Assembly (NCBI GenBank): GCA_965223415.1
Contig: OZ245002.1
Coordinates: forward strand, 1,600,001-1,664,000
Length of the DNA stretch: 64,000 nt
DNA from: Myxococcota bacterium
GTDB taxonomy: Bacteria; Myxococcota_A; UBA9160; UBA6930
Direction: 5' to 3'
The notes beneath the pieces are model-generated. The model saw only the letters and a program-made list of their open reading frames with translations, searched no databases and was not told the origin of the DNA. Positions 2,743-61,963 of the stretch are shown piece by piece. The position numbers were made by a program, and so were the translations under genes. Each line of letters opens with the position of its first letter. The stretch's first letter is position 1.

Positions 2743-4437
2743 ATGATTCTCCTGAATCCCCGCCATCCGGGCCACGAAGGCGACGACGCGCGAACCCGCG
2801 AGCTGATGCGCCAGACCGTGGAGTTCTTCGAGACCAAGGGCAAGAAGCGCCTGCTCGAGGACTACTACGATCGCGGCTGGTACGCCGATTTCCTCGAGTA
2901 CGCGAAGGATCACCGACTCCTCGCCACGATGTGCACGCCCGAGGGCGAGGGCGCCGACGACGCGCGTTGGGACACCTGGCGGGTCTGCCAGTTCGCCGAG
3001 ATCCTGGGCTTCTACGGCCTTCAGTACTGGTACACCTGGCAAGTCTCGGTGCTCGGGCTCGGACCGATCTGGATGAGCCCGAACGAAGCCGTCCGCAAGC
3101 GCACCTCCCGGGCCCTGGAAGACGGCGGCATCTTCGCCTTCGGCCTGTCCGAGAAGACACACGGCGCCGACATCTACTCGACGGACATGGTGCTGACGAA
3201 GGACGGCGACGGCTGGAGGGCCAACGGCCGAAAGTACTACATCGGCAACGGCAACGAAGCGGCGATCGTCTCGACCTTCGGTCGCTTCGACGGCGGCGAC
3301 GAGTACGTGTTCTTCGCCTCCGACCCGAGGCACGAGAGCTACCAGCTGGTGAAGAACGTGGTCGCCAGCCAGAACTACGTGTCCGAATTCGAGCTGCGCG
3401 ACTACCCGGTCGGCGAAGCCGACATCCTGCACCGCGGCCGCGACGCCTGGAACGCGGCGCTCAACACCGTCAACATCGGCAAGTACAACCTCGGCTGGGC
3501 CTCGATCGGCATCTGTACCCACGCGCTCTACGAGGCGATCACCCACGCGAACAACCGGGTTCTCTATGGCAGTCCGGTGACCGACATGTCGCACGTCCGC
3601 AACATGTTCGTCGACGCCTACTGCCGATTGGTCTCGATGAAACTCTTCGCACTGCGCGCCGCCGACTACATGCGCGTCGCCTCCCGCGAAGACCGCCGCT
3701 ATCTGCTCTTCAACCCGATGGTGAAGATGAAGGTCACCACCCAGGGCGAAGACGTAATCAACCTGTTGTGGGACGCCATCGCCGCCAAGGGCTTCGAGAA
3801 GGACACCTACTTCGGCCAGGCCGCCATCGACATCCGCGCCCTACCGAAGCTCGAGGGCACGGTGCACGTGAACATCGCGCTGATCGTGAAGTTCATGGCG
3901 AACTACTTCTTCAACCCGGGCGAGCATGCGGAGGTGGAGCGCCAGGACCAGCCGCGCAACGACGGCTTCCTCTTCGACCAGGGGGGCGCCGGCGGCCTCG
4001 GCCAGATCCAGTTCCACGACTACCGGAAGGTCTTCGACGAGTTCGCGCGCATCCCCAACGTCGCGCTCTTCGCCGAGCAGGCCGACGCCTTTCGCGAGCT
4101 GCTCGCCAGCGACCCGCCCGGCCCCGACCAGATGAAGGACGTCGATTTCCTGCTGGCGGGCGGCAACCTGTTCGCGATGGTCGTCTACGCCCAGCTCATC
4201 CTCGAGAACGCCGGGATCTACGGTCTGGACGACGACCTGGTCGGCCAGATCTTCGACTTCATGATCCGCGACACCGCGCAGCACGCGCTCCACCTCTCGC
4301 TCCAGGCGAGCAGCACCGAGAAGCAGATGGCCCAGTGCCAGAAGATGCTGCGCAGGCCGGTCGCCGATCCGGCTCGCTACGACCGGGTGTGGCAGAGTGT
4401 CCGGGCGTTGGACGGCGCCTACGAGATGAATCCGTAG
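2743..4437 (+). CDS. Acyl-CoA dehydrogenase
   Basis: FGLSEKTHGAD, NGRKYYIGNG and LPKLEGTVHVN motifs. Confidence 0.9.
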   Translation: MILLNPRHPGHEGDDARTRELMRQTVEFFETKGKKRLLEDYYDRGWYADFLEYAKDHRLLATMCTPEGEGADDARWDTWRVCQFAEILGFYGLQYWYTWQVSVLGLGPIWMSPNEAVRKRTSRALEDGGIFAFGLSEKTHGADIYSTDMVLTKDGDGWRANGRKYYIGNGNEAAIVSTFGRFDGGDEYVFFASDPRHESYQLVKNVVASQNYVSEFELRDYPVGEADILHRGRDAWNAALNTVNIGKYNLGWASIGICTHALYEAITHANNRVLYGSPVTDMSHVRNMFVDAYCRLVSMKLFALRAADYMRVASREDRRYLLFNPMVKMKVTTQGEDVINLLWDAIAAKGFEKDTYFGQAAIDIRALPKLEGTVHVNIALIVKFMANYFFNPGEHAEVERQDQPRNDGFLFDQGGAGGLGQIQFHDYRKVFDEFARIPNVALFAEQADAFRELLASDPPGPDQMKDVDFLLAGGNLFAMVVYAQLILENAGIYGLDDDLVGQIFDFMIRDTAQHALHLSLQASSTEKQMAQCQKMLRRPVADPARYDRVWQSVRALDGAYEMNP

Positions 4438-5018: not shown

Positions 5019-5095
5019 TGGCGCGCCCGGCACGACTCGAACGTGCGACCTCCAGGTCCGCAACCTGGCGCTCTATCCAACTGAGCTACGGGCGC
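5019..5095 (-). tRNA. tRNA-Arg(GCG)
   Basis: GCGCCCGTAGCTCAGTTGGATAGAGCG-CCAGG-TTGCGGA-CCTGG-AGGTCGCACGTTCGAGTCGTGCCGGGCGCGCCA; 77 nt, encoded CCA. Confidence 0.93.
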
Positions 5096-5141
5096 TCTCA
5101 GAGCGGGGCGCGAATCCTAGCGAACCCTGCTCGGGAAGCCT

Positions 5142-5229
<88 letters not shown>

Positions 5230-5280
5230 GGGCGCTCGCGTGGGCTGAATTCGCGAGCGATCACATGCACTTGGGGGATC

Positions 5281-5370
<90 letters not shown>

Positions 5371-10295: not shown

Positions 10296-10380
<85 letters not shown>

Positions 10381-28477: not shown

Positions 28478-29197
28478 CTAGGCCAGGATCAGCCGCTTGC
28501 AGGAGGGGCATGGCGTCCAGGAGCCCGGGCCCTCGGCCTTGATGCGGCTCACCTCCACCACGGGCAGCACCACGCGACAGGTGCCGCAGGTGTTCTCGAC
28601 GAGGTGGCTCATCACCAAGCCGCCCAGCCGTGCGAGACCTCGCTGCTTCTCGTAGTCCTTCAGCAAGGCGTCGCCGACTTCTGGCGTGACCAGCTTGCGG
28701 GCGTCGGCGAGACGCGCGAGCTCGCCGTCGATGCGCCCCTCTTGGGTCGCGATCTCGGCCCGCAGGGCCTCGCAGTCGCCCTCGAGTCCGGCGCGCAGCG
28801 CGTCGATCTCGGCCATCTCGGCTTCGTGCTGCTCGCCGCATTCCATGATCTCGAGCTCGCGCTCCTCCCTCTCGGCCTGGCGCGTCCTCCAGGAGGCGGA
28901 CTCGGCCTGCAGGGCCTCGAGGTCCTTCGCCGCGGTGACGCGACCGGAGTAGAGATCGTCTTCGAGCGCCTTGGCGCGGGCCGCCAGGTCCGCGACCTCC
29001 GCCGCGACCGTGCTCTCTTCCTGCGTCAGCGCCGCGCGTCGGGCCTCGGCCTCGGCGCGGCGGAGGAGGAGTGCCCGGTCTTCGTCGCCCCTGGCCTCGA
29101 GGCGGGCCCGTTCGGGGAGCCCTGCGCGTTCGTCCCGCAGCCGATCCGCCTCCGAGTCGAGGCCCTGGAGCGTGAGCACCGGATGGAGCGTGGGCAT
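28478..29197 (-). CDS. Coiled-coil protein with C4-type zinc ribbon (DUF164-like)
   Basis: LQGLD start, long coiled coil, CGTCRVVL..CPSCKRLI. Confidence 0.85.
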   Translation of the reverse strand: MPTLHPVLTLQGLDSEADRLRDERAGLPERARLEARGDEDRALLLRRAEAEARRAALTQEESTVAAEVADLAARAKALEDDLYSGRVTAAKDLEALQAESASWRTRQAEREERELEIMECGEQHEAEMAEIDALRAGLEGDCEALRAEIATQEGRIDGELARLADARKLVTPEVGDALLKDYEKQRGLARLGGLVMSHLVENTCGTCRVVLPVVEVSRIKAEGPGSWTPCPSCKRLILA

Positions 29198-29262: not shown

Positions 29263-29541
29263 CTAGCGGTTGTAGCCACCGCCGCCGCCACCGCGGCGGT
29301 CCTGGGCTTCGTTCACGCGCAGGGGACGACCCCCCATGTCGCTGCCGTCGAGGGCGCGGATCGCGTCGTTCGCGGCGCTCTCCTCGCTCATCTCGACGAA
29401 CGCGAAGCCGCGTGCCCGCCCCGTCTCGCGGTCGGTGATGACCGCGACGGAGTCGATGCTCCCGTGACGACCGAACAGGTCGCGAAGCTCCTGCTCGGTG
29501 GCGGAGAAGGGAAGGTTGCCGACGTAGATCTTCTTGCTCAA
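29263..29541 (-). CDS. RNA-binding protein (RRM, Gly-rich tail)
   Basis: TTG start after GAGG; KKIYVGNLPF (RNP2), RGFAFVEM (RNP1), LRVNEAQDRRGGGGGG. Confidence 0.93.
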   Translation of the reverse strand: MSKKIYVGNLPFSATEQELRDLFGRHGSIDSVAVITDRETGRARGFAFVEMSEESAANDAIRALDGSDMGGRPLRVNEAQDRRGGGGGGYNR

Positions 29542-29572
29542 TGCATGGTCCTCGTGACTCGCGCAGATCGCG

Positions 29573-29721
29573 CGGCCACGGATCGCTCCGGTCGCGGGTC
29601 CGGACGATCCGGACGGGTTCCCGTCGCGTGGGTGAGCCCCGGGGATCCGGGCCTCGAGGGGATTCGACGGGAAACAGTGGCTGGCCAGGGCCGAGCCAAG
29701 GGAACCGATCGGAGGCCTCTC
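29573..29721 (-). ncRNA. Putative structured 5' leader RNA, copy 1 (upstream of RRM gene)
   Basis: Aligns with 33809..33984 with compensatory changes in the predicted stems; preceded by TGT-TAGCCT extended -10-like box (29738-29730). Confidence 0.65.
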
Positions 29722-29900
29722 AACGACGGAGGCTAACAAGTGTTCCGGATCCGGCCCGGGGAGCCGGAAGCCCCCGGGAACTCAGGCGATTTCCGTCAGC
29801 CCTCGGCCGATGACCAGCCCGAAGCCCTGAGGCCCTCGGGCCTGGGCGCCCGCTCAAGACCTGCCTCCGGCGGTTCGATGCGCTGCTCGGGGAGGCCGCG

Positions 29901-32213
29901 ATGCTTCGATTCACCCGATCTCGGCGCCTGCTCTTGCCTGCGAGCCTCTACCTGGTGCTCGCAACGGCCGGCCTGACGTTTGCGCACCAGGCGGGAGCCC
30001 AGCGCTCGAGTGACGGTGGCGACGACAAGCCGGCGATGGAATGGGTCGCGGACCTGAAATCCCCGACCCCGGGAACCCGCACCCGCGCCACGATCGCCCT
30101 GGCCAAGCTCGAGCCCACCCCGCCCGAGGTGGTCGCCGGGGTCGCCGCACTCCTCGAGCAGGAGAGCTGGTCCGTCCGCGCCCAGGCGCTGATGGTGCTG
30201 GGGAACCTCGGCCCAGAGGCCTCGAGTGCGTTGCCGAGGATCCTGGACGCTCTCCACGACGAGAACGAGCACGTCCGTCGCTCGGCCGCGGGCGCGCTGC
30301 CCAAGGTCCCGGCGCGGACCCACGAGACGCGGCTCGCGCTGGTGGAGATCCTCGCGGCCGAGAACCGCTACCTGCGCACCCAGGCAGGCTACGCCCTGGC
30401 TGCCGTGGGCGACGAGGCGGGAGACGTTGCGCCGGAGCTTGCTCGTCTCGTGACGGGCGACGATCGCCTGGTACGCGAAACGGCCGTCAACGTGCTCGCG
30501 AAGCTTCCCCCCGACGCGGTGGTGCCCGTCCTCATCCCGCTGCTGACCCACGAGGACCGCTCCGTCCGTCAGGGGGCGGCAGGAACGCTGGGCTCCTTCG
30601 GACCGGCGGCGCGGGCCGCAGTCCCGACCCTGGTCGGATTGCTCGACGAGTACCCACACCACCTGATGGCGGTTCACACGCTGGGTCGCATCGGTCCCGG
30701 TGCGAAGGAGTCGATTCCCGCGCTCCTGGCACTCTTCGACAGATCGGATCCCAGCCGCCAGCTGCGGATCGCAGCCGCCCAGGCGCTAGGCGGGATCGGT
30801 CCCGAGCCGCGCGAGGTGCTGCCCCTCTTCCGCGACGAGCTGGCAGCGCAGGAGCTCTCGGAAGCGACCGGGCGCTATCGCACGACGCTCGCTGCGGCGA
30901 TTCTCGAGATGAGCGGTCCCGACGACCCGGCCATCCGGTCCTATGTGAAGCGCCTCGGGCGCGCGGGGAGCAGCTGGATTCCGATGACCCGGGTGGAAGC
31001 GGTCAAAGCCCTCGCCGCCCTCGGTCCCGCAGCGAGCCCGGCGGTGGACTCGCTGCGCTCCTCGCTGCGCGAGGATCGCGAGCCGAAGATCCGCGGCCTC
31101 GCCGCGGAGGCGCTGGGTGGGATCGGCGCAGCGGCGCGCCCGGCCCTGCCGGACCTTCTCGAGGCTCGGACAGACGACGACGAGGAGTACGTCCGCAAGC
31201 GGGCCGACGCCGCCATCGCCAGGATCGAGGCCCGCGGCACCGAGACGGCCCCTCCGGCAGCGGCGGCGAAGTCGACGCCCGGGGCCGAGCGCGCGGAGCG
31301 GCAGAAGGAGATCGCCGCCGACATCGCCGCGCTCGGCGCTTCGGGATCGCGTCAGACGCGAGCCGCCCTCCGGCTGCTCGAGCGCGCTCCCGAGAGCCTT
31401 CCCGCCCTGCACAGGGCCGTACTCTCGCCGGATACCGACGAGGCGGCCCGGGGCCGCCTGATCGCGCTGCTCCTCGACCTCGGCGATCCCCGCTCGGTGG
31501 ACGTCCTCCTCCAGGCGGTGCGGGCCCATCCGCAGGAGCGCGGGCTCCGCATCGACGTCCTGCGTGCGCTGGGCGAGCTGCCCCCGACCGAGGCCTCGTT
31601 CGAGTTCGCGAGACGTACGCTCGTCGACGCCCAGGAGATCCCGCGCGCCAAGCGCCAGGCGCTCCTCTACTTCGCCATGCAGCGCGACGAGCGTGGGCGC
31701 GAGTGGGCTGAGCGCTTCCGGAACAGTCCCGACCTCGACTTGCGTGCGGCCTCGCTCTACCTGGCCGCGTCGATCGGAGACACGACCGCCCTGGAGCCCG
31801 CTACGACGCTCCTTCGCGAGCAGCCGCGATCCTCGATCCGCTACGGCTTGCTGCTGGCCCTGACGGAATTGGTGGATCCGGCGGAGCTCGTGCGGCGCGT
31901 CGAGCCGGAGCAACGGCACGGCGACGCGTACGACAGCGCACTGCGCATCGCGAAGCTGCGGTCCGCCGCGCCGAACGAGCGCGTGGCATTGGCTCGCGAG
32001 ATGATCGAATCGCCCTTCCCGAACGAACGCCGCATCGCGATGAGGGCTCTCATCGAGAGGAACGCGCTGGGCGAGCTCGCGTCCCTGCTCGAGCAGTGGT
32101 GGTTCGTCCCGGCACACGTGCGCGCCACCGTAGCGGCCGAGCTCTACCGCGGTGGCTATCGCTTCGTGGAGAGGGACCGGCGCCTCGAGATCGCGAGACG
32201 GCAGTCGGGCTGA
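29901..32213 (+). CDS. HEAT/PBS-lyase repeat protein with signal peptide
   Basis: Many VRxxAAxALGxIGPxA-type repeats; N-terminal signal peptide. Confidence 0.85.
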   Translation: MLRFTRSRRLLLPASLYLVLATAGLTFAHQAGAQRSSDGGDDKPAMEWVADLKSPTPGTRTRATIALAKLEPTPPEVVAGVAALLEQESWSVRAQALMVLGNLGPEASSALPRILDALHDENEHVRRSAAGALPKVPARTHETRLALVEILAAENRYLRTQAGYALAAVGDEAGDVAPELARLVTGDDRLVRETAVNVLAKLPPDAVVPVLIPLLTHEDRSVRQGAAGTLGSFGPAARAAVPTLVGLLDEYPHHLMAVHTLGRIGPGAKESIPALLALFDRSDPSRQLRIAAAQALGGIGPEPREVLPLFRDELAAQELSEATGRYRTTLAAAILEMSGPDDPAIRSYVKRLGRAGSSWIPMTRVEAVKALAALGPAASPAVDSLRSSLREDREPKIRGLAAEALGGIGAAARPALPDLLEARTDDDEEYVRKRADAAIARIEARGTETAPPAAAAKSTPGAERAERQKEIAADIAALGASGSRQTRAALRLLERAPESLPALHRAVLSPDTDEAARGRLIALLLDLGDPRSVDVLLQAVRAHPQERGLRIDVLRALGELPPTEASFEFARRTLVDAQEIPRAKRQALLYFAMQRDERGREWAERFRNSPDLDLRAASLYLAASIGDTTALEPATTLLREQPRSSIRYGLLLALTELVDPAELVRRVEPEQRHGDAYDSALRIAKLRSAAPNERVALAREMIESPFPNERRIAMRALIERNALGELASLLEQWWFVPAHVRATVAAELYRGGYRFVERDRRLEIARRQSG

Positions 32214-32349
32214 GGGGAGGCCGCTGAGCGGCGATTCGTTCTCTGCGGCCCAGCTCGCGAACTCGCCGGGGCTCTCCACGGGGTCAACGCCATCCCATCG
32301 CCGCCGGGTCCGTCGGCGAGGGTCGGCAGGAAGCCCCTAGAATCCCGCC

Positions 32350-33327
32350 ATGCGAATCATCATCGATACCGATCCCGCGATGGGCACGTTGGGCGGCGAT
32401 CCCGAGGACTCGTTCGCCATCATGCTGGCGCTGGGCTCACCGGAGGTCGTGGTGGAGGGCATCACGATCGTCCAGGGCAACGTCCCCGCCGAGAAGGGCT
32501 ATTCGAACGCCCACCATCTCCTTCGGCTCCTCGGCCGGGAGGACGTGCCGCTGCGGCGGGGGTGCCTGCGCCCCCTCAGCACCGAGCGGAAGGTCCAGGT
32601 CACGTGGTTGGAGCGTCGCTATGGGTCCAAGCAGATCACCGAGAGGGTCGAGCCCTCGGACGCGGAGGCGGATGCCGCCTCCTTCCTGATCGACACCGCC
32701 CTGGCCAACCCGGGCGAGATCACCCTGGTGACGATCGGGCCCCTCACCAACGTCGCTGCGGCCATGCAGCGGGCGCCGGAGCTCGCCGGGGCCCTCGAGC
32801 GAATCGTGATGATGGGCGGCACGGCGGCTTGCGCCGGGAACATCTCCCCGGCCGCCGAGTTCAACTACTGGCAGGATCCGGAGGCCGCCGACGTCGTGTT
32901 CCGGTCGGGCGCGGACATGACCATGGTGGGCCTCGACGTCTGTCACCAGACCCAGCTCCGTCCGGAGCAGGTCGAGGAGTGCGCGAGGGCCGGCTCGGAC
33001 CTGGGACGGTTCGTGCTCGAGGCCACGGCGCCCTGGTTCAAGATCATGGCCGCGGGCTCCGGCACCGAGGCCCTGCACCTCTACGACAGCCTCGCCATGG
33101 CCGTCGCCATCGATCCCGGCCTGGTGACCCTCGCGGACTCCTTCGTGGAGATCGAGACCGGGAGCGGGCCGGCCCAGGGGATGAGCGTGTCGCACCACCT
33201 CCTCTATCAGCGGGCGATCTTCGGCCATCGCGAGACGAACGCGAAGGTGGCGCTGGACGTCGACGCGGAGAGGTTTCACGAGCTCTTCCGCCGGAGGGTC
33301 CTCGACTCGATCGCGGGAGGTGCGTGA
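32350..33327 (+). CDS. Nucleoside hydrolase (IU-NH family)
   Basis: IIDTDP..DPEDSFA, IGPLTNVA, AEFNYWQDPEAA and LYDSLA motifs. Confidence 0.9.
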   Translation: MRIIIDTDPAMGTLGGDPEDSFAIMLALGSPEVVVEGITIVQGNVPAEKGYSNAHHLLRLLGREDVPLRRGCLRPLSTERKVQVTWLERRYGSKQITERVEPSDAEADAASFLIDTALANPGEITLVTIGPLTNVAAAMQRAPELAGALERIVMMGGTAACAGNISPAAEFNYWQDPEAADVVFRSGADMTMVGLDVCHQTQLRPEQVEECARAGSDLGRFVLEATAPWFKIMAAGSGTEALHLYDSLAMAVAIDPGLVTLADSFVEIETGSGPAQGMSVSHHLLYQRAIFGHRETNAKVALDVDAERFHELFRRRVLDSIAGGA

Positions 33328-33357
33328 CCCGCGGCGAAGCGACCCGGCCACGGCGGG

Positions 33358-33798
33358 TCACTCGGGCGGGGGCACCCGCTTCAGCCGTTCCGGCACGTTC
33401 GGGGGCTGCGCCTTGCGGTGGTTGGCGATCAGCTGGTCCTCCAGAATCTGGCGAGTCCAGCTGTACATGCAGTCGTTTGCCAGGGCGCCGACGGGCTTCT
33501 TGCACATCACGTCGCGCCGGGACCAGAGCAGGATGAAGGGCTTGTCCAGCTCTCGCGCCAGGAGCAGCTCGGCCGCGACCTGGGGCGACGCGTCCGTGTG
33601 CTCGCCGCAGACGAAGACCACCTGCTCCGCCGCGGCGATCTCCCGGCGGGCACGCTGGTGCCAGGCGTCCGTCATGTCGCCGCCTCGCGAGCGGCCACAC
33701 AGCTCGAAGACCGGCGGGCCGTCGGTGCTCGAGGCGATCCGATCGAGGGCGTCCGCGTCGTGGTCGACGTCGAAGGCGAGGTAGATGCGGTGCGTCAT
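33358..33798 (-). CDS. Stand-alone TIR-like (MTH538/DUF1863, ThsB-type) domain protein
   Basis: RIYLAFDVDHD..RREIAAAEQVVFVCGEHTDASPQVAAELLLARELDKPFILL. Confidence 0.72.
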   Translation of the reverse strand: MTHRIYLAFDVDHDADALDRIASSTDGPPVFELCGRSRGGDMTDAWHQRARREIAAAEQVVFVCGEHTDASPQVAAELLLARELDKPFILLWSRRDVMCKKPVGALANDCMYSWTRQILEDQLIANHRKAQPPNVPERLKRVPPPE

Positions 33799-33808
33799 GG
33801 TCGTCCCT

Positions 33809-33984
33809 CGGCCACGGTCGGCGCCGGTCACGGGCCCGGACGATCCGGACGGCGTTCCGCCGCATGGAGGATCCGGTTGCCGTCGGTGACATCTGCGTCT
33901 TCGGCGGCGCCGGAACCTGGAGGGTAGTTCGACGGAAACGGAGGCAAGGCGAAGCCGTGCCTGGGGATCTATCGGTGACCTCTC
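33809..33984 (-). ncRNA. Putative structured 5' leader RNA, copy 2 (upstream of TIR-like gene)
   Basis: Homologous to 29573..29721; preceded by TATTTT -10-like box (33998-33993) at the same 8-nt spacing. Confidence 0.65.
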
Positions 33985-34133
33985 GTAGGCAAAAAATAGC
34001 GAACCTGGCCTCGAACGCTCGCTGCCGCCGTCGGGCGCACCGGGTGCTACCGGCGCGATCGCGAGCCGTGTAGCGTCAGCGTTGCGGCGGCCTCGGCCCG
34101 GCGAGGCCGCCGGGACACCACGGGGACTCCAAC

Positions 34134-35246
34134 TTGAACCGCTTCTCTGCCGAAGAGCGCCTTGCCCTCCAGGAGTCGGTTCGGCAGCTGCTCGCCAACG
34201 AGAGCGACGAGCGCGCCGTACGAGCGACGATGGACACGACGAGCGGCTACGACCCGGAGCTCTGGAAGCAGCTCGCCGAGATGGGAGTGGTCGGACTGAT
34301 CGTAGACGAAGCCCACGGCGGAGCGGGCCTCGGCCCGGTGGAGCTGGAAACGGTCATGGAGGAGGTTGGCGCGGCGCTGCTGTGCTCGCCCCTTCTCGCC
34401 AGCGGCGTTCTCGCGGCCGCCCTGCTCGGGGCGCTGGGCGACGAGCAGACCAACGCCCGCCTGCTGCCGGGCATCGCCGATGGAAGCCGCATCGCCACCG
34501 CCGCACTCACCGGGGCCCGCGGTCGCTGGACGCCGGACGGCGTCGCGATCTCGGCGGAGGCGGATGGAGCGGTTTGGAGGCTCACGGGCCACGCCGGCTT
34601 CGTGCTGCACGGTCAGAACGCCGACGTCCTGTTGGTGCTCGCCAACACGGCCCAGGGCCTTGGCTGCTTCGTGGCCGAACCCGGCCCGCCCGGTATCGAG
34701 ATCTCCCCCCTGCCCACCTTCGACCACACCCTGAGGCTGGCGGAGGTCGCCTTCGAGGGCGCGGTCGCCGAGCCCGTGGCCGCGCGGATCCCGGCCTGGG
34801 AGGCGGTGCGGCGCGCCATGGACGTGACCCTCGTCGCACTCGCGGGGGAGCAGGCGGGCGCCGCCAGGCGCTGCCTCGCGTTCACGGTCGACTACGCCAG
34901 GAGCCGCATCCAGTTCGGCCGGGCCATCGGCAGCTTCCAGGCGGTGAAGCACATGGCGGCGGATCTCCTGCTCGAGACGGAATCGGCCACCTCGGCGGCG
35001 CGCCACGCCGCGGCCCGGCTCGCCGAGGATGTGGACGGCGCGGCCCAGGCGGTGAGCCTGGCCGCCTTTGCCTGCGCGGACGCCTTCGTCACCACCGCGG
35101 CGGACAGCATCCAGATGCACGGCGGCATCGCCTTCACCTGGGAGCACCCGGCGCATCTGTACCTGCGGCGTGCCCGGGCAGACGCCCAGCTGTTCGGCTC
35201 CCCCTCGTTCCATCGGGAGCGATTCCTCGAAGCCCTGGGTGCGTGA
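34134..35246 (+). CDS. Acyl-CoA dehydrogenase (short subunit of a paired ACAD)
   Basis: RIQFGRAIGSFQAVKH and IQMHGGIAFTWEHPAHLYLRRA motifs. Confidence 0.9.
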   Translation: MNRFSAEERLALQESVRQLLANESDERAVRATMDTTSGYDPELWKQLAEMGVVGLIVDEAHGGAGLGPVELETVMEEVGAALLCSPLLASGVLAAALLGALGDEQTNARLLPGIADGSRIATAALTGARGRWTPDGVAISAEADGAVWRLTGHAGFVLHGQNADVLLVLANTAQGLGCFVAEPGPPGIEISPLPTFDHTLRLAEVAFEGAVAEPVAARIPAWEAVRRAMDVTLVALAGEQAGAARRCLAFTVDYARSRIQFGRAIGSFQAVKHMAADLLLETESATSAARHAAARLAEDVDGAAQAVSLAAFACADAFVTTAADSIQMHGGIAFTWEHPAHLYLRRARADAQLFGSPSFHRERFLEALGA

Positions 35247-35247
35247 C

Positions 35248-36468
35248 ATGTCCCCTGGAAAGCCGATGAGCGACGACGAGCTGCGCCAGGAGGTCCGCGA
35301 GTGGCTGGCGGAAAGCTGGTCCGAGGAGAGAGCGGCTGCGCTGAGGGAGCAACCGGTCTGGGGCTCCTCGACCGAGCTGACGGCCTGGCTCGGCGAGGTG
35401 GTGGAGGCGCGATGGGCCGTGCCGAGCTGGCCCGCCCGTTGGTTCGGGCGCGACCTGGACGACGCCCAGGCGAAGATCGTCGCCCAGGAGTTCCGCCGCG
35501 CGCGGGCACCGGGCGCCGGGCAGGACCGGTCGAACATGTGGGCCAACACGCTGCTCGCACGCGGCACGGACGCGCTCAAGGCCCGGCTGCTCGGCCCGCT
35601 CCTGAAGAACGAAGTCAACATGTGCCTCCTCTACAGCGAGCCCGGCGCCGGCTCGGACCTGGCGGGCATCCGCACCCGAGCCGACCGGAAGGGAGACCAC
35701 TTCGTCGTCAACGGGCAGAAGGTCTGGACCTCCGGCGCCGCGATCGCGGACTACGGCATGCTGATCGCGCGCACTGATTGGGACGTACCCAAGCATCAGG
35801 GCATCAGCTTCTTCTTCTGCCCGATGAAGCAGCCCGGCATCGAGGTGCGCCCCCTGCGCCAGATCACCGACGAGAGCCACTTCAACCAGGTCTTCATCAC
35901 CGATGCCCACGTGCCGGCGGAGAATCTGCTCGGAGAGGAGGGCTCCGGATGGCGGGTGCTGCAGACCGCCCTCGCCTACGAGCGCTCGCTGCTGGGCGAT
36001 GCCGCCCGCGGCGCTCGGAGCGGTGCCAAGGAGGCCGCGCACGAAGAAGTGCTCGTCTCGTTGGCCCGCGAGGCCCACGTACTCGACGACCCTGCACTTC
36101 GGCAGGAGATCGCCCAGGCCATCGCCTACAAGAGGCTGAACGCCTTGAACAACGCCCGGGTCAAAGCCGAGATGGAGCAGGGCACGAGCTCGTCGCTGAT
36201 GAGCCTCGGCAAGCTGGCCATGTCCCGGGTCCTCCACGAGGAGGCCCGGGTCCGCACCGCGATCCTGGGCGCGCGGAGCCTGTTCGAAGGCAGCGACCAT
36301 CCGCGGGCCGAGGATGCGAACTTCCTGACCCTGAACGCCTACTTCACTTCGATCGGCGGCGGCACCGACCAGATCCAGCGCAACATCATCGGCGAGCGGG
36401 TACTCGGCCTGCCGAAGGAGCCGGAGGTCGACACGGCCGTTCCCTTCCGCAAAGTGCGCAAGAGCTAG
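35248..36468 (+). CDS. Acyl-CoA dehydrogenase
   Basis: LYSEPGAGSDLA, NGQKVWTS and IGGGTDQIQRNIIGERVLGLP motifs. Confidence 0.9.
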   Translation: MSPGKPMSDDELRQEVREWLAESWSEERAAALREQPVWGSSTELTAWLGEVVEARWAVPSWPARWFGRDLDDAQAKIVAQEFRRARAPGAGQDRSNMWANTLLARGTDALKARLLGPLLKNEVNMCLLYSEPGAGSDLAGIRTRADRKGDHFVVNGQKVWTSGAAIADYGMLIARTDWDVPKHQGISFFFCPMKQPGIEVRPLRQITDESHFNQVFITDAHVPAENLLGEEGSGWRVLQTALAYERSLLGDAARGARSGAKEAAHEEVLVSLAREAHVLDDPALRQEIAQAIAYKRLNALNNARVKAEMEQGTSSSLMSLGKLAMSRVLHEEARVRTAILGARSLFEGSDHPRAEDANFLTLNAYFTSIGGGTDQIQRNIIGERVLGLPKEPEVDTAVPFRKVRKS

Positions 36469-36533
36469 GGCGACTCACGGCAAGCGCCGCGTGGAGGCGC
36501 AGGTGGTCGATGTGCCGCCGGAGCGACGGCCGC

Positions 36534-37682
36534 CTAGAGACCGAGCTCCCGGGCGATCATGTTCCGTTGGAGCTCGCTCGATCCCTCGCCGAGCTCGAAG
36601 ACCTTGCAGTCGCGGTAGTAGCGCTGGATGGGCGAATCGCTCAGGTAGCCCGACGCGCCGTGGTAGTGGAGCGCCCGCTCCACGATGTGGGTGCACGCTT
36701 CCGTGGCATAGAGCTTGGCCATGGATGCCTCGCGACCGTGCGGAAGCCCGCGGTCCGCCGCGATCGCGGCCCGGTGACAGAGCAGCCTGGCGGCCTCGAT
36801 CCGCACCGCCATGTCGGCGATCCCGAAGCGCACGGCCTGGAAGCTGCCGATGGGCTGGCCGAACTGGACCCGGTCCCCGGCATGAGCGAGCGTCGCTTCG
36901 AAGGCGGCGCGCGCCACCCCGATCGCGAAGGCCGCGGAGGCGATCCGCCCGAGGGTGAGGGTCGCGAGCGAATCCAGGAAGCCGCCGTGCTCGCGACCGA
37001 TGAGGTTCCCCTTCGGAACGCGGCAATCGTCGAACACGAGCGCACCCATCTCGGAAGCCCGCACGCCCAGCTTGGAGAGGGAGGCTTCGACACGAAAGCC
37101 GGGCCGGTCGCACTCGACGAGGAACAGGGAGAGGCCCTTCAGCCGCTTCTCGGGGGCCGTCGACGCCACGACGACGAGGAAGTCCGCGATCGGGCCGTTC
37201 GTGATGAACATCTTGGAGCCGTTGATCACGTACGCGTCCCCGTCGGCGACGGCGCGGGTCGCGACCTGGCCCGCGTCGGAGCCGGCGCCGTCCTCGGCGA
37301 AGGCCCAGCCTCCGATCTTCCGGCCGGAGAGCGCGGCCGGAAGCCACTTCGCGCGAACCTCTGACGAGCCGAAGGCCTCGAGCGCGGCGCAGGCCAGCGC
37401 CATGTGGACGTAGATGCCCAGGGCGATGCCGCCGGATCCGTAGGCGAGCTCCTCGCAGAGGAACGCGTAGTCGAGATTGCTGCCTCCCGACCCTCCCACC
37501 TCTTCCGGGAACCCGAGCCCGAGGTAGCCGAGGGAGCCGAGCTTCGGGAAGAGCTGCACGGGAAAGCGCTCCTCCGCGTCGCACTCGGCGGCCAGCGGCG
37601 CGACCTCTCGGGAGACGAACTCGCGCAGGGCCCGCTGGAGCTCCCGCTGCTCGTCGCTCAGGTAGAAGTCGGGCTCGGCCAC
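36534..37682 (-). CDS. Acyl-CoA dehydrogenase
   Basis: GTG start; AEDGAGSD, NGSKMFITNG and LGEGSSELQR motifs. Confidence 0.9.
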   Translation of the reverse strand: MAEPDFYLSDEQRELQRALREFVSREVAPLAAECDAEERFPVQLFPKLGSLGYLGLGFPEEVGGSGGSNLDYAFLCEELAYGSGGIALGIYVHMALACAALEAFGSSEVRAKWLPAALSGRKIGGWAFAEDGAGSDAGQVATRAVADGDAYVINGSKMFITNGPIADFLVVVASTAPEKRLKGLSLFLVECDRPGFRVEASLSKLGVRASEMGALVFDDCRVPKGNLIGREHGGFLDSLATLTLGRIASAAFAIGVARAAFEATLAHAGDRVQFGQPIGSFQAVRFGIADMAVRIEAARLLCHRAAIAADRGLPHGREASMAKLYATEACTHIVERALHYHGASGYLSDSPIQRYYRDCKVFELGEGSSELQRNMIARELGL

Positions 37683-37683
37683 C

Positions 37684-38463
37684 TCACTGCCCCCGGAAGA
37701 CGGGCGGGCGCTTCTCCTGGAACGCCCGCACACCCTCGCGATGGTCTTCGCTCTGGATGCACTGCACCTGGGCGAAGATCTCGAACTCGAACTCGGCCTC
37801 CATGTCCACGCCGAGAGACCGGTGGATGGCGCGCTTCGTCCAGCGGTGCGCGATGGGTGGGCCCGCGGCCAGCTGGGCGGCGAGTGCCGCGACCTCATCC
37901 TGGAAGGCGTCGGGCCCGGCCACGCGATGGACGAGGCCGATCTCCAGGGCTTCGGCCGCCTCGACCAGGCGGCCGGTGAACATCATCTCCGTGGCAGTCC
38001 CGAGGCCGAGCAGACGCGGCAGGAACCAGCCGGCGGACATGTCGCAGCCCGCCAGACCGATGGGCGTGAAGGGCGCCCCCAGCCGGATGCCCGCTGCGGC
38101 GATGCGGAAGTCGCAGGCCAGGGCCAGGCCGAGCCCGCCTCCCACCGCGTCGCCGTGCAGGGCGGCGACGACCGGCTTGTCCATGCCGACGATCGCGCGC
38201 ACCGGATCCAGGTAGCGGCGCACGATCGGCTCCCATTCCTGGGAGCCCCGCAAGGTCATCTCGGCCTGGTCGGCGCCGGCGCAGAACTTCCGACCCCTTC
38301 CGGCCAAGACGACCACCCGAACCTCCTCCGACGCGCCGACCTCGGTGAGCGCTTCCACGAGGCAGTCGACGGTCGGAATGGCGAGGGTGTTGAGTCGATC
38401 GGGGCGGTTGAGGGTGACGGTGCCGACACCGTCGGCCACCTGGACCAGGACTTCGTCGCTCAT
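37684..38463 (-). CDS. Enoyl-CoA hydratase/isomerase
   Basis: TLNRPDRLN, FCAGAD and HGDAVGGGLGLALACDFR motifs. Confidence 0.9.
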   Translation of the reverse strand: MSDEVLVQVADGVGTVTLNRPDRLNTLAIPTVDCLVEALTEVGASEEVRVVVLAGRGRKFCAGADQAEMTLRGSQEWEPIVRRYLDPVRAIVGMDKPVVAALHGDAVGGGLGLALACDFRIAAAGIRLGAPFTPIGLAGCDMSAGWFLPRLLGLGTATEMMFTGRLVEAAEALEIGLVHRVAGPDAFQDEVAALAAQLAAGPPIAHRWTKRAIHRSLGVDMEAEFEFEIFAQVQCIQSEDHREGVRAFQEKRPPVFRGQ

Positions 38464-42283: not shown

Positions 42284-43455
42284 GAGCTCTCCGTGGTCTT
42301 GACCAGCGAGCGCGAGATGATCTCGCGCATGATCTCGGAGGTGCCGGCTCCGATGGAGAAGCCGGCAACGTCCCGGTAGTAGCGGGGGATGGGGGACTCC
42401 TCGATCTGGCCGTAGCCGCCGTGGAGCTGGAGCACGTGGGCGGCCACCGACTGGACGGCCGCCGCGGCGTGAAGCTTCGCCATGGAGACGGCCACGTCGC
42501 CGCCCCGGTCGCCATCGCTCAACAGGCGCGCCGCCTGGTAGCAGAGCGCCCGGGTCGCCTCGAGCTGCGTGGCCATCTCGGCGAGCCGGTGGCGCCAGGA
42601 TTGGAAGTCGAGGAGCGCGGAGCCAAACGCCTTGCGTTCGCGAGCGTGGTCGAGACCCAGCTCGATGAGACGCTCCATGATGCCGACGGCGAATGCGGCG
42701 ATGACGAGCCGCTCCCCGCCGAAGTGGGAGAGGATATAGTGCATCCCCTTCCCTTCCTCACCGATCAGGTTGGTGACGGGGATCCGGCACTCGTCGAAGA
42801 AGAGCTCGCCCGTATCCGACGCCCGCGATCCGAGCTTGTCGAGGCGACGACCGACCTTGAAGCCGGGCGTGTCGGTGGGAAAGACGACGAGCGAAATACC
42901 GCGCGGTCCGACCTCCCCCGTTCGAACGGCGAGCGTCACGAAGTCCGCGCGCGTGCCGTTCGTGATGTAGGTCTTCTGGCCGGAGATCACGTAGTCGCCA
43001 CCCACCCGTCGGGCGCGTGTGCGGATCGCGGCGACGTCGGAGCCGGCGCCGGGCTCGGAGACCCCGATCGAACCGATGCGCTCCCCGCGTATGGCGGGCG
43101 CCAGCCACTCCTCCTTGAGCTCGTCCCTCGCCTCGTCCGCGAGAGCCGAGAGGGCGAACTCCGACTGCGCCAGCAGGCCGACGGCGGTGCCGACCGAATC
43201 CCCCTTCGCGAGCTCCTCGCAGAGCACGCAGGTGGAGAGGAAATCCAGACCGCTGCCGCCCCAGCGCTCCTCGTAACGCATGCCCAGGAATCCGAGCGCG
43301 CCGGCCTTGCGGTAGAGCTCGCGCGGGAACTCTCCGGCGGCCTCCCAGGCATCCGCGTTCGGCCGGATCTCCCGATCGGTGAAGGCCGCCGCGCTCTCGC
43401 GCAGCGCCTGGTGATCGGCTCCCAGGTAGAGGGAGGGAAGGCGGAGGAGGCTCAT
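42280..43455 (-). CDS. Acyl-CoA dehydrogenase
   Basis: VSEPGAGSDVA, GQKTYITNG, LQLHGGYG and IGAGTSEIM motifs. Confidence 0.9.
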   Translation of the reverse strand: MSLLRLPSLYLGADHQALRESAAAFTDREIRPNADAWEAAGEFPRELYRKAGALGFLGMRYEERWGGSGLDFLSTCVLCEELAKGDSVGTAVGLLAQSEFALSALADEARDELKEEWLAPAIRGERIGSIGVSEPGAGSDVAAIRTRARRVGGDYVISGQKTYITNGTRADFVTLAVRTGEVGPRGISLVVFPTDTPGFKVGRRLDKLGSRASDTGELFFDECRIPVTNLIGEEGKGMHYILSHFGGERLVIAAFAVGIMERLIELGLDHARERKAFGSALLDFQSWRHRLAEMATQLEATRALCYQAARLLSDGDRGGDVAVSMAKLHAAAAVQSVAAHVLQLHGGYGQIEESPIPRYYRDVAGFSIGAGTSEIMREIISRSLVKTTESS

Positions 43456-43469
43456 CGGGGTGTTCCTTC

Positions 43470-43511
43470 TTGACTGATGACCAGACTATGATATTGGTCA
43501 TTCATCGTCAA
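43470..43511. promoter_or_regulatory. Divergent control region: TetR operator overlapping a sigma70-type promoter of the ACAD operon
   Basis: ATGACCA(43477-83)/TGGTCAT(43495-501) inverted repeat; minus-strand TTGACG-17nt-TAGTCT. Confidence 0.6.
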
Positions 43512-43531
43512 CCGCTCTCCGGGAGCCTCCC

Positions 43532-44152
43532 ATGGCCGCCCTGCCCGACCCGGCGACCCGCCTGATCGCCGCCGCCGAGACCCAGTTCCGCCGCTTCGGC
43601 TACCGGCGCACGACGATCGACGACATCACCGCGGACGCCGGCACCGGAAAGGGCAGCCTCTACCTCCACTTCGAGTCGAAGCAGGCCGTCTACCTGGCCG
43701 TCGTGGGGGCGTCGGTCGAGCGCTTCGTGGGCGGCGCCTCCGAGCTACTGGAGGGGCCGGGCGCGGTCCCCGTGCGGCTTCGCTCCCTGGTCGAGCTGAC
43801 GATCGACCACTACGGAAGGGACGAGCTGCTCCAATCGTCGCTGTTCGGGAACGGCGCCCTCGTGGATGGCGAGGTCGCCCGAAGAGCGGCCGACCTCCAG
43901 CGCACCCGCATCGTCCACCTCCTGCGCGAGCTCCTCGCGGAGGGAACGCGAGAGGGAACAGTGCGCGCCGACATCGATGTGGACGCTGGCGCAGCCGTGC
44001 TCTTCGAGATCGGCTGGGCGGTCGTCCGCACCGCCCTCGAGGGCTCGAGCCGGATCCCCCTGGACGAGGCACTGAACACACTCAACCTGATCGTCGGCCT
44101 GGGCCTGCTGCCGCGGGGTGGCGGGTCGCCCGGGCCCCGACCGGAGGCGTGA
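43532..44152 (+). CDS. TetR/AcrR family regulator
   Basis: FRRFGYRRTTIDDITADAGTGKGSLYLHFESK HTH. Confidence 0.9.
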   Translation: MAALPDPATRLIAAAETQFRRFGYRRTTIDDITADAGTGKGSLYLHFESKQAVYLAVVGASVERFVGGASELLEGPGAVPVRLRSLVELTIDHYGRDELLQSSLFGNGALVDGEVARRAADLQRTRIVHLLRELLAEGTREGTVRADIDVDAGAAVLFEIGWAVVRTALEGSSRIPLDEALNTLNLIVGLGLLPRGGGSPGPRPEA

Positions 44153-60568: not shown

Positions 60569-61963
60569 CTACGCGCGCAGTCCGCTCCGATGGCGGGCCA
60601 GGTAGCTCGCCGTGAGCGCCTCGATCTCCTGGATGCCCAGCTCCCGCGCGTAGGCCAGCAGGAACCCCCGGAGATAGGGCTCGGGAGGAAGCGATGCGAA
60701 GCGCTCGCGCTCGATATCGCCGAGGCCGTGGATACACGTGCGCTCGGTCATCTCGCGCAGCGTCAGGCCGAGCCGTCTGCGACACCGGCGCAGGTAGGCG
60801 CCCGGTCGCTCGAGATCGAGAGCGGGCAGCGAGGGGGACGGCGGGGGCGTTGCCGGAGGCGCCACCTGGGTGCGCCGCCCCGTCCGGGTGGGCTCCGCTC
60901 GGCGCGACGCGAGGGAACCGCCGGGCTCCGCTCCGCGCGACGCGTGGGAACCGCCGGGCTCCGCTCCGCGCGACGCGTGGGAACCGCCGGGCTCCGGCGT
61001 CTCCCACTCCTCGCGGAGGAGACGCCCCGCAAGCGCGTCGATCTGGCGCGCGAAGGCGCTCCGCGCGAACAGCTGGGGTGCGGGTCTCCTCCGCGCGACG
61101 GCCTCCCGCACGTGGGGGTCGGCATCGATGTGGCCCGCGTAGTCGATCGCTACGCCCAGACGCTCCCAGCAGCGCGCGGCGAGTGCCGGTCCGACCTGCC
61201 GGTCCTCGAGATCCCGGGCCTGGTTGACCAGCAGGAGCGGTGCGAAGGCCTCGGCCTGCTCCGCCAGCAGCTTGGCCGCAAGCGGGTCGATCCGCCGGAC
61301 CCCTGCGATCAGGTCCCAGGTCGAGCCCACGCGACGCAGCGAGCCGTCCTCGTTGGCCCGAAGAATGGCGGCGCGCACCTCCGGACGGCGCGTCACCACC
61401 CGCAGCGAGCGGTAGAAGGCGGCCCGGATGAAGTGCTGCGCATTCTCGATCGCCGTGGGCTCGGACGTCACCACGACCAATCCGCGCCGTGCGACCAGGA
61501 ACGCGTCGAGCACGTTGAACGCGCTCCCGGCGCCGAGGTCGATCACCACCTCCTCCACGTCCAGGCCCCTCACGTGCCGGAGAAACTTCTCCTTCTGGCA
61601 GTGCTTCGGGTTCGCCATGTCGAGGAGCGCGCGGCTGGCGCTCACCAGGGAGAGGTGAGGGACGGATGTCGGCACCAGCAGCTCCGCAAGCGCTTTGACC
61701 TCTCCGCTCAGGAAGTGCGAGAGCGTCCACCGGGGCGCCGGGACCCCGAGCATGGTGTGCAGGTTCGCACCACCGAGATCCGCGTCGATCAGGGCACAGC
61801 GGCGCCCGCTCGCGGCCATCGCGCAGGCGAGGCTGGAGGCGACGAGGGACTTCCCAACGCCCCCCTTGCCGGCCCCGACGGCCCAGATTCGGGCTGCTCC
61901 GTCCAGCCTCGGCGCCGGAGCGGCCGGTTCCGTGAGCGTTCTCCGTTGTCCCCGTCGGTTCAT
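60569..61963 (-). CDS. MinD/FlhG-like P-loop ATPase with C-terminal RodZ-like HTH
   Basis: GKGGVGKS, IDADLGGANLH, DLGAG and EPTAIENA; C-terminal GAYLRRCRRRLGLTL..TCI..IE..YLRGFLLAYARELG. Confidence 0.85.
   Translation of the reverse strand: MNRRGQRRTLTEPAAPAPRLDGAARIWAVGAGKGGVGKSLVASSLACAMAASGRRCALIDADLGGANLHTMLGVPAPRWTLSHFLSGEVKALAELLVPTSVPHLSLVSASRALLDMANPKHCQKEKFLRHVRGLDVEEVVIDLGAGSAFNVLDAFLVARRGLVVVTSEPTAIENAQHFIRAAFYRSLRVVTRRPEVRAAILRANEDGSLRRVGSTWDLIAGVRRIDPLAAKLLAEQAEAFAPLLLVNQARDLEDRQVGPALAARCWERLGVAIDYAGHIDADPHVREAVARRRPAPQLFARSAFARQIDALAGRLLREEWETPEPGGSHASRGAEPGGSHASRGAEPGGSLASRRAEPTRTGRRTQVAPPATPPPSPSLPALDLERPGAYLRRCRRRLGLTLREMTERTCIHGLGDIERERFASLPPEPYLRGFLLAYARELGIQEIEALTASYLARHRSGLRA
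60890..60996. repeat. 33-bp in-frame tandem repeat (3.2 copies)
   Basis: gggctccgctcSgcgcgacgcgWgggaaccgcc units at 60890, 60923 and 60956; encodes EPGGS(H/L)ASR(G/R)A. Confidence 0.9.

Follow-up and report, generated by a model that had tools for sequence, protein, structure and literature searches.

Bacterial RRM-type RNA-binding proteins are little understood, and recent work has assigned them a role as chaperones of the cold-shock type whose leaders are long and regulated. A 2005 study by Ehira et al. reportedly concerns, as its title has it, the role of the Anabaena rbpA1 5′ untranslated region (UTR) at low temperature. The Bacteroides rbp genes carry 5′ UTRs of 122–155 nt and show feedback and cold regulation (PMC13370968). 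The same paper likens them to cspA, whose structured leader of ~160 nt it describes as being under post-transcriptional control thought to combine refolding and autoregulation. Here we describe two homologous leaders, copies A and B, in a window of 64,000 nucleotides from a Myxococcota bacterium (contig OZ245002.1, positions 1,600,001 to 1,664,000 of the forward strand; positions below count from the first letter of this window). Copy A precedes a gene for an RRM protein and copy B a gene for a TIR-like protein of the ThsB type. The element probably acts in cis, as a structured 5′ leader RNA of ~180–210 nt that belongs to a conserved pair of RRM and ThsB-type TIR-like genes in an uncultured lineage of Myxococcota/‘Deltaproteobacteria’.

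As with the cspA 5′ UTR, a long structured leader is here attached to a gene for a small nucleic-acid chaperone. Unlike cspA, the gene encodes an RRM and not a CSD protein, no Rfam match at E ≤ 10 falls on either leader, and no temperature trend is predicted. With Bacteroides rbpA/B/C and Anabaena rbpA1 the locus shares the gene family (RRM_1, NF058537); the likeness drawn here is one of gene family, the present leader being GC-rich, built on a four-way junction and also found on a TIR-like gene. The element further resembles the orphan cis-regulatory motifs of the kind described by the Breaker laboratory, in that a conserved, covarying intergenic structure lies 5′ of a narrow set of genes in one lineage. 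It differs from the catalogued motifs in being absent from Rfam 15, although it may have been listed earlier, unnamed, in motif-discovery papers. It is a new RNA family of a known sort, namely a structured leader lying 5′ of a gene of the RNA-chaperone type, and adds a conserved, foldable leader family outside Rfam. The less ordinary feature is the conserved pairing of RRM and TIR-like genes, a partnership on which our literature search found no paper.

Homology and copy number of the leaders

The initial annotation had described two non-coding minus-strand segments that align with one another, and the present analysis bears this out. Copies A and B (coordinates in Table 1) are homologous, with a mean column identity of 74% over the 261 columns of their pairwise alignment, and an independent repeat search recovered the same two leaders as a 71-nt pair with 77% identity (family D6). 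Both open with GAGAGG, and exactly 8 nt separate this motif from an upstream TAnnnT hexamer resembling a −10 element, TAGCCT in A and TATTTT in B, just as had been pointed out. Both are sense-oriented and lie directly 5′ of their genes, with the 3′ end at the ribosome-binding site (RBS). Directly 5′ of copy B there is also a TATTTTTT run (33985–34000, minus strand), unusual in DNA of ~70% GC; it is the sole AT-rich patch of this divergent intergenic region and is likely a promoter element.

A covariance model run over the window with filters on and off finds the two leaders, at the scores given in Table 1, followed by a next best match of 11.4 bits, and there is no third leader-bearing target in the 64 kb. 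The 17-nt core of hairpin P4 (see below) occurs exactly twice in the window, in A and B; allowing three mismatches adds one more match, where ~2 are expected by chance at ≤3 mismatches. A dispersed repeat of the REP or MITE type was rejected: there are only two copies in the 64 kb, both sense and both at an RBS, and the copy in a second genome (L016, below) occupies the equivalent position. The element thus stands as first proposed, a sense-oriented, structured, non-coding leader with two window copies that both lie 5′ of genes. The earlier proposal of a candidate new RNA is likewise upheld in that no Rfam family matches it. Searching the whole window against Rfam 15 at gathering scores returned four tRNAs only, and at E ≤ 10 the region 29400–34200 gave four chance matches (E 1.4–6), none of them on A or B. 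In a plasmid collection, leader A had no match by blastn.

Genome contigs, in a collection that excludes the window's own genome, were scanned with a 22-nt core pattern, which gave 31 loci. Thirty of these are chance matches, their similarity being confined to 22–57 nt at the pattern site and their covariance-model scores reaching at most 19.7 bits. The remaining one, L016, is genuine and comes from a metagenome-assembled genome of a ‘Deltaproteobacteria bacterium’. Its leader of 212 nt (2862–3073) opens with GAGCGG, 8 nt after TAGGCT, and is followed in order by the RRM gene (TTG at 3074), a GC-rich hairpin and then directly the TIR-like gene (ATG at 3442); the covariance model finds no other leader copy in the rest of this 6-kb stretch. 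By blastn, the similarity between copy A and L016 starts exactly at the GAG of 29721. The three leaders are 72–79% identical to one another, whereas the 100 nt upstream are just 60–62% identical in every comparison. Between the window and L016, the RRM coding sequences are 85% identical and the TIR-like ones 65% at the nucleotide level and 52% at the protein level.

Secondary structure

An RNAalifold consensus from the three sequences (A, B and L016) contains 52 pairs, eight of which have changes on both sides. Its core is a predicted four-way junction, in which a closing helix P1 encloses hairpin P2, a long arm, P3, that carries a variable insert and the inner hairpin P3a, and the nearly invariant hairpin P4. 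In the alignment fitted to the model, 93.9% of 148 cells are paired, as opposed to 31–47% when the partners are slid by 1–3 columns. Nine pairs are changed on both sides in this alignment, two in P2, one in P3, four in P3a and two in P5, a further hairpin near the start codon; the alignment of P3a is uncertain. The initial annotation had already described the two swaps in P2, the one-pair indel and single G-U in P3, across which pairing is kept, and P4, and all three are as described. P4 is the same in every copy except for one A/G difference giving U-A or U-G, and in P5 copy A and L016 differ by one C-G to U-A and one G-U to G-C change. In P1, 27 of 30 cells are paired. The folding energies, expressed as z-scores of the minimum free energy, are −2.47 for A, −1.29 for B and −3.23 for L016. 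Back-translation of leader-derived peptides from relatives (see below) leaves P3, P4 and P5 compatible with pairing, but this is not counted as covariation because it leaves the wobble positions free.

P4, as a near-perfect and invariant palindrome (7-3-7), might instead be a DNA-level operator, that is, a transcription-factor site with which the remainder of the element hitch-hikes. This is very improbable, as P4 would lie ~110 bp downstream of the putative start of transcription. Moreover, its one variable position gives a U-G, by which RNA pairing is kept and DNA symmetry broken, and the changes in P2 and P5 are compensatory at the level of RNA.

The initial annotation had closed the structure with a stem between the 5′ end (GGCCTC or GGTCAC) and GTGGCC near the RBS. 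This stem does pair, in 16 of 18 cells, but it shows no compensatory change, a U-U mismatch interrupts it in A and in L016, and RNAalifold prefers a different, longer helix, P1. In the RRM copies (A and L016), GTGGC is also the 5′ strand of the stronger local hairpin P5, which therefore competes with the alternative stem; in copy B, which lacks P5, the alternative stem is perfect (6 of 6) and P1 is weakened. P1, the alternative stem and P5 could on these folding predictions be alternative states of the leader.

Two possible, mutually exclusive closing helices, together with highly conserved sequence near the junction (P4, the linker after it and the 3′ strand of P1), would also suit a small-molecule riboswitch, in which the four-way junction is the aptamer and a ligand selects P1 or the pairing of the 5′ end with GTGGC. 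We regard a riboswitch as unlikely. The genes encode RNA-binding and TIR-like proteins, neither metabolic nor transport proteins, and the three sequences offer no ligand clue and no consistent terminator or anti-RBS expression platform. A terminator scan found no terminator-like site in the leaders, and the three copies have no anti-RBS helix in common, so that a riboswitch expression platform was rejected.

Table 1. Positions of the leader elements and associated genes in the window
Feature	Position	Strand	Remarks
−10-like hexamer TAGCCT, copy A	29730..29735	−	conservation begins 8 nt downstream; putative promoter element
−10-like hexamer TATTTT, copy B	33993..33998	−	copy B begins 8 nt downstream
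Leader copy A, 180 nt	29542..29721	−	conserved GAG to last base before the RRM TTG; covariance model 184.7 bits
Leader copy B, 186 nt	33799..33984	−	GAG to last base before the TIR-like ATG; P1–P4 present, P5 absent; covariance model 172.3 bits
P1 5′ strand, copy A	29706..29717	−	pairs with 29584–29594; RNAalifold consensus
P1 3′ strand, copy A	29584..29594	−	includes GGAG, 6 nt ahead of the conserved GTG
P2 hairpin, copy A	29678..29698	−	two pairs U-A/A-U changed on both sides among the three copies
P2 hairpin, copy B	33942..33962	−	
P3 of copy A, together with its variable insert and P3a	29619..29672	−	all P3 cells paired
P4 hairpin, copy A (7 bp, loop TCG)	29598..29614	−	most conserved part
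P4 hairpin, copy B	33834..33850	−	
P5 hairpin, copy A	29553..29580	−	abuts RBS GAGGA (29549–29553); in A and L016, not in B
GTGGCC followed directly by RBS GAGGGA, copy B	33804..33815	−	GTGGCC can pair 6/6 with 5′ GGTCAC at 33975–33980
RRM (Rbp-type) RNA-binding protein gene, 92 aa	29263..29541	−	TTG start; glycine-rich tail
GC-rich hairpin without T-run, 3′ of the RRM stop codon	29222..29256	−	bulk of the −34.9 kcal/mol fold of the 65-nt post-stop stretch
TIR-like (ThsB-type) protein gene, 146 aa	33358..33798	−	ATG at 33798
HEAT-repeat gene	29901–32213	+	between the RRM and TIR-like genes
Inosine-uridine-preferring nucleoside hydrolase gene	32350–33327	+	between the RRM and TIR-like genes

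Start of the RRM gene and non-coding status of the leader

The RRM protein scores above the cutoffs of PF00076 (83.5 bits against 20.7) and of the NCBIfam model NF058537, Rbp_regulator (105.1 bits against 100). Its start is the TTG at 29541, in agreement with the public 92-residue call (P0310); the ATG CAT TGA beginning at 29546 lies in another frame. A hairpin comparable to the one 3′ of the RRM gene lies in L016 between the RRM and TIR-like genes (about 3383–3410; folded stretch −35.8 kcal/mol), where it could set the relative expression of the two.

In copy A and L016 the leader frame is open and joined in frame to the RRM open reading frame (ORF), which raises the question of whether the element encodes protein, be it an extended N terminus or a short upstream ORF running from GTG to a TGA that overlaps the main start. 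Thirteen RRM homologues carry an N-terminal extension of more than three residues, and 12 of these were compared with the translated leaders. Three matched (P0180, E 4e-10; P0187, 1.3e-4; P0231, 3.4e-4), each in a frame of its own with respect to the RRM ORF, and two more matched weakly (P0185, E 0.015; P0191, E 0.077); P0304, P0314 and P0321 are further variants. The three frames found in these mis-called extensions show that the element is non-coding and has no conserved reading frame, and the leader-derived extensions themselves show that more leader copies lie 5′ of RRM genes in uncultured relatives. A protein search with the main-frame translation of leader A, covering five candidates, gave no hits.

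The short frame opens at the conserved GTG of the CCGTGGC motif (29539–29580 and 33796–33815, minus strand; 3033–3077 in L016) and in all three copies ends at the TGA overlapping the main start (TTGA or ATGA). GGAG stands 6 nt before this GTG in A and L016, and in P0321 and P0185 the GTG is in frame with the RRM ORF and was picked as the start by gene callers. Coding sequence is nonetheless most unlikely to explain the element: the phase from the core to the start varies among relatives over three frames, copy B has GGCG in place of GGAG, the copies differ by 1-nt indels, and the main-frame translation has no protein-database match. Coupling through an upstream ORF was likewise rejected as a conserved feature, since the phase differs in P0180, P0185 and P0321.

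Probable split of a gene pair, with a duplicated leader

In the window the RRM and TIR-like genes are 4 kb apart, with two plus-strand genes between them. Protein records from relatives indicate a closer association. The 90% cluster of the window RRM protein (P0310) includes P0301, which is MAE95451.1, and the TIR-like homologue P0010 is MAE95450.1; the two accessions are consecutive, and both list eight contigs, the longest being 107673. Other RRM and TIR-like proteins likewise share their longest contig, namely P0303 and P0007 (19894), P0314 and P0002 (24887), P0308 and P0300 (3741), and P0214 and P0014 (79373; the L016 pair), as do P0205 and P0011 (2716), which could be coincidence. Consecutive accessions and identical longest contigs suggest that the pair is present on at least four contigs besides L016.

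Since the genes are adjacent behind a single leader in L016 and share contigs elsewhere, the window appears to hold a split pair with a duplicated leader. The initial annotation had spoken of a regulon. The leader does link the TIR-like gene to the RRM gene, but no wider regulon is apparent and a split gene pair is the better reading. That the leader was duplicated along with the moved TIR-like gene argues for action in cis, and the duplication at the split can be regarded as a natural experiment to that effect.

The same observation bears on whether the RNA acts in trans, the leader being cut off and binding the RRM and TIR-like proteins as a ribonucleoprotein, like the non-coding RNA of a defence system. 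The trio of RNA, RRM and TIR-like protein is conserved in order, and the TIR-like protein has a predicted ThsB-type fold, both of which would fit. Yet one trans copy would suffice, and here the leader was duplicated with the moved gene. PADLOC at E ≤ 0.001 gave no hit for any of the four proteins submitted (RRM, window TIR-like, its zinc-ribbon neighbour and the TIR-like protein of L016), the L016 copy having one weak match to ThsB1 (E 0.0012). A trans-acting role is distinctly unlikely, and the reading as a cis-acting leader is the one followed here.

The nucleoside hydrolase gene between the pair runs towards the TIR-like gene, leaving 30 nt between the two stop codons, and both proteins have N-glycoside-cleaving folds. 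This neighbourhood is probably incidental because it is not conserved in L016.

The TIR-like protein

The window TIR-like protein falls below both Pfam cutoffs (TIR_2, 17.1 bits against 28), but PF08937, ThsB_TIR, is passed by eight of nine scanned homologues (23.3–31.2 bits against 21.2). An AlphaFold2 model reached a pLDDT of 93.6, and its best Foldseek match is the Bacillus cereus TIR structure 8fz9 (E 6e-6, TM 0.67–0.75), followed by EcThsB, DNPH1, the SPARTA TIR and the SARM1 TIR. The modeled protein thus has a predicted TIR fold of the ThsB type, the same as that of BcTir. This BcTir is reported to lack NADase activity (10.1101/2023.05.26.542521). The initial annotation had called the gene an orphan, which does not hold: a word-indexed search gave 29 homologues, and at E ≤ 0.001 there are matches to 263 representative clusters. 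The third helix holds an almost invariant Glu, E77, which may correspond to the catalytic Glu of TIR NADases.

Unlike ThsB of Thoeris systems, the protein has an RRM protein as its conserved partner and no ThsA-type neighbour was seen. By Pfam the flanking genes encode a HEAT-repeat protein, a nucleoside hydrolase and an acyl-CoA dehydrogenase, and a Thoeris system was rejected, as Pfam and PADLOC gave no ThsA-type partner beside the window gene. None of 16 longer or N-terminally extended TIR-like relatives carries an RRM domain, and complex prediction for the RRM and TIR-like proteins returned a score of 0.00, which speaks neither for nor against binding. The shared leader offers a direct handle on the role of a stand-alone TIR-like protein outside known Thoeris contexts.

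Proposed function of the leader

As a cis-acting leader, the RNA would jointly set the translation or stability of both mRNAs. By analogy with cspA and the Bacteroides rbp 5′ UTRs, the likeliest route would be feedback binding by the RRM protein, temperature-dependent refolding, or both, and a possible switch would lie in competition among P1, P5 and the stem that the 5′ end can form with GTGGC. In the window, the pair would have been split by the two opposite-strand genes, and the stretch that opens with the −10-like element and stops just short of the RBS would have been duplicated, which may have let the TIR-like gene retain the same leader.

Several observations weigh against this interpretation. 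The covariation comes from three sequences only, and the pairing counts lean towards the structure because both it and the fitted alignment derive from these same sequences. Compensatory changes are absent from the most conserved parts, P1 and P4, two pairs of P1 are mismatched in copy B, and 24 of 200 shuffles fold at least as well as copy B. This copy also lacks P5, so the part nearest the start codon is not common to both leaders. A promoter scan found no sigma-70 consensus at the leaders, no anti-RBS partner is common to A, B and L016, and among 30 extended TIR-like homologues there was no convincing leader-derived peptide (best E 0.048). Finally, RBS accessibility, predicted as the unpaired fraction, stays level from 10 to 45 °C in both window copies (0.33–0.37 in A, 0.00–0.01 in B).

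Over the same range the L016 leader shows a modest rise, from 0.06 to 0.24. The thermosensor suggested initially finds no backing in these predictions: with RBS accessibility lacking a temperature trend in A and B, a zipper-type RNA thermometer (ROSE or fourU) was rejected, on predicted folds. The absence of a temperature trend and of anti-RBS pairing would also fit a stability or processing element, whose structured 5′ end blocks 5′-end-dependent decay or directs processing with no sensing involved. The stable, GC-rich fold does start 4 nt from the putative 5′ end, and strong hairpins also lie 3′ of the RRM gene in both genomes. A simple protective hairpin, however, needs neither a conserved multi-branch structure of ~170 nt nor a near-invariant P4, and we find this explanation rather doubtful.

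The association may go further. Together with its leader, the gene pair could make up one new functional module, in which a TIR enzyme acting on NAD or nucleotides would owe its recognition of RNA to the RRM protein, and the four-way-junction RNA would sense the RRM protein or a small molecule and gate both genes. This is a speculative extension to which we attach little weight; if true, the module would either couple a TIR system to RNA metabolism or cold stress, or be a hitherto unrecognised defence pair triggered by RNA.

Other features of the window

A gene downstream of the RRM gene (28478–29197, minus strand) encodes a coiled-coil protein that is CT398-like and bears a C4 zinc ribbon. 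The protein has a weak NCBIfam match to CdsZ, and in L016 its gene is not beside the pair. Elsewhere, a 33-nt unit is repeated in three head-to-tail copies, 95% identical, at 60890–60996 on the plus strand (family D2). Four tRNA genes are found on the minus strand at 5022–5370 and 10296–10380, three of which are long-variable-arm types that share their 5′ and 3′ halves. The window also contains several acyl-CoA dehydrogenase paralogues (34134–37898 and about 42900–43950), and the repeat families D9 and D19 (spacing 5761) and D15 mark paralogous stretches.

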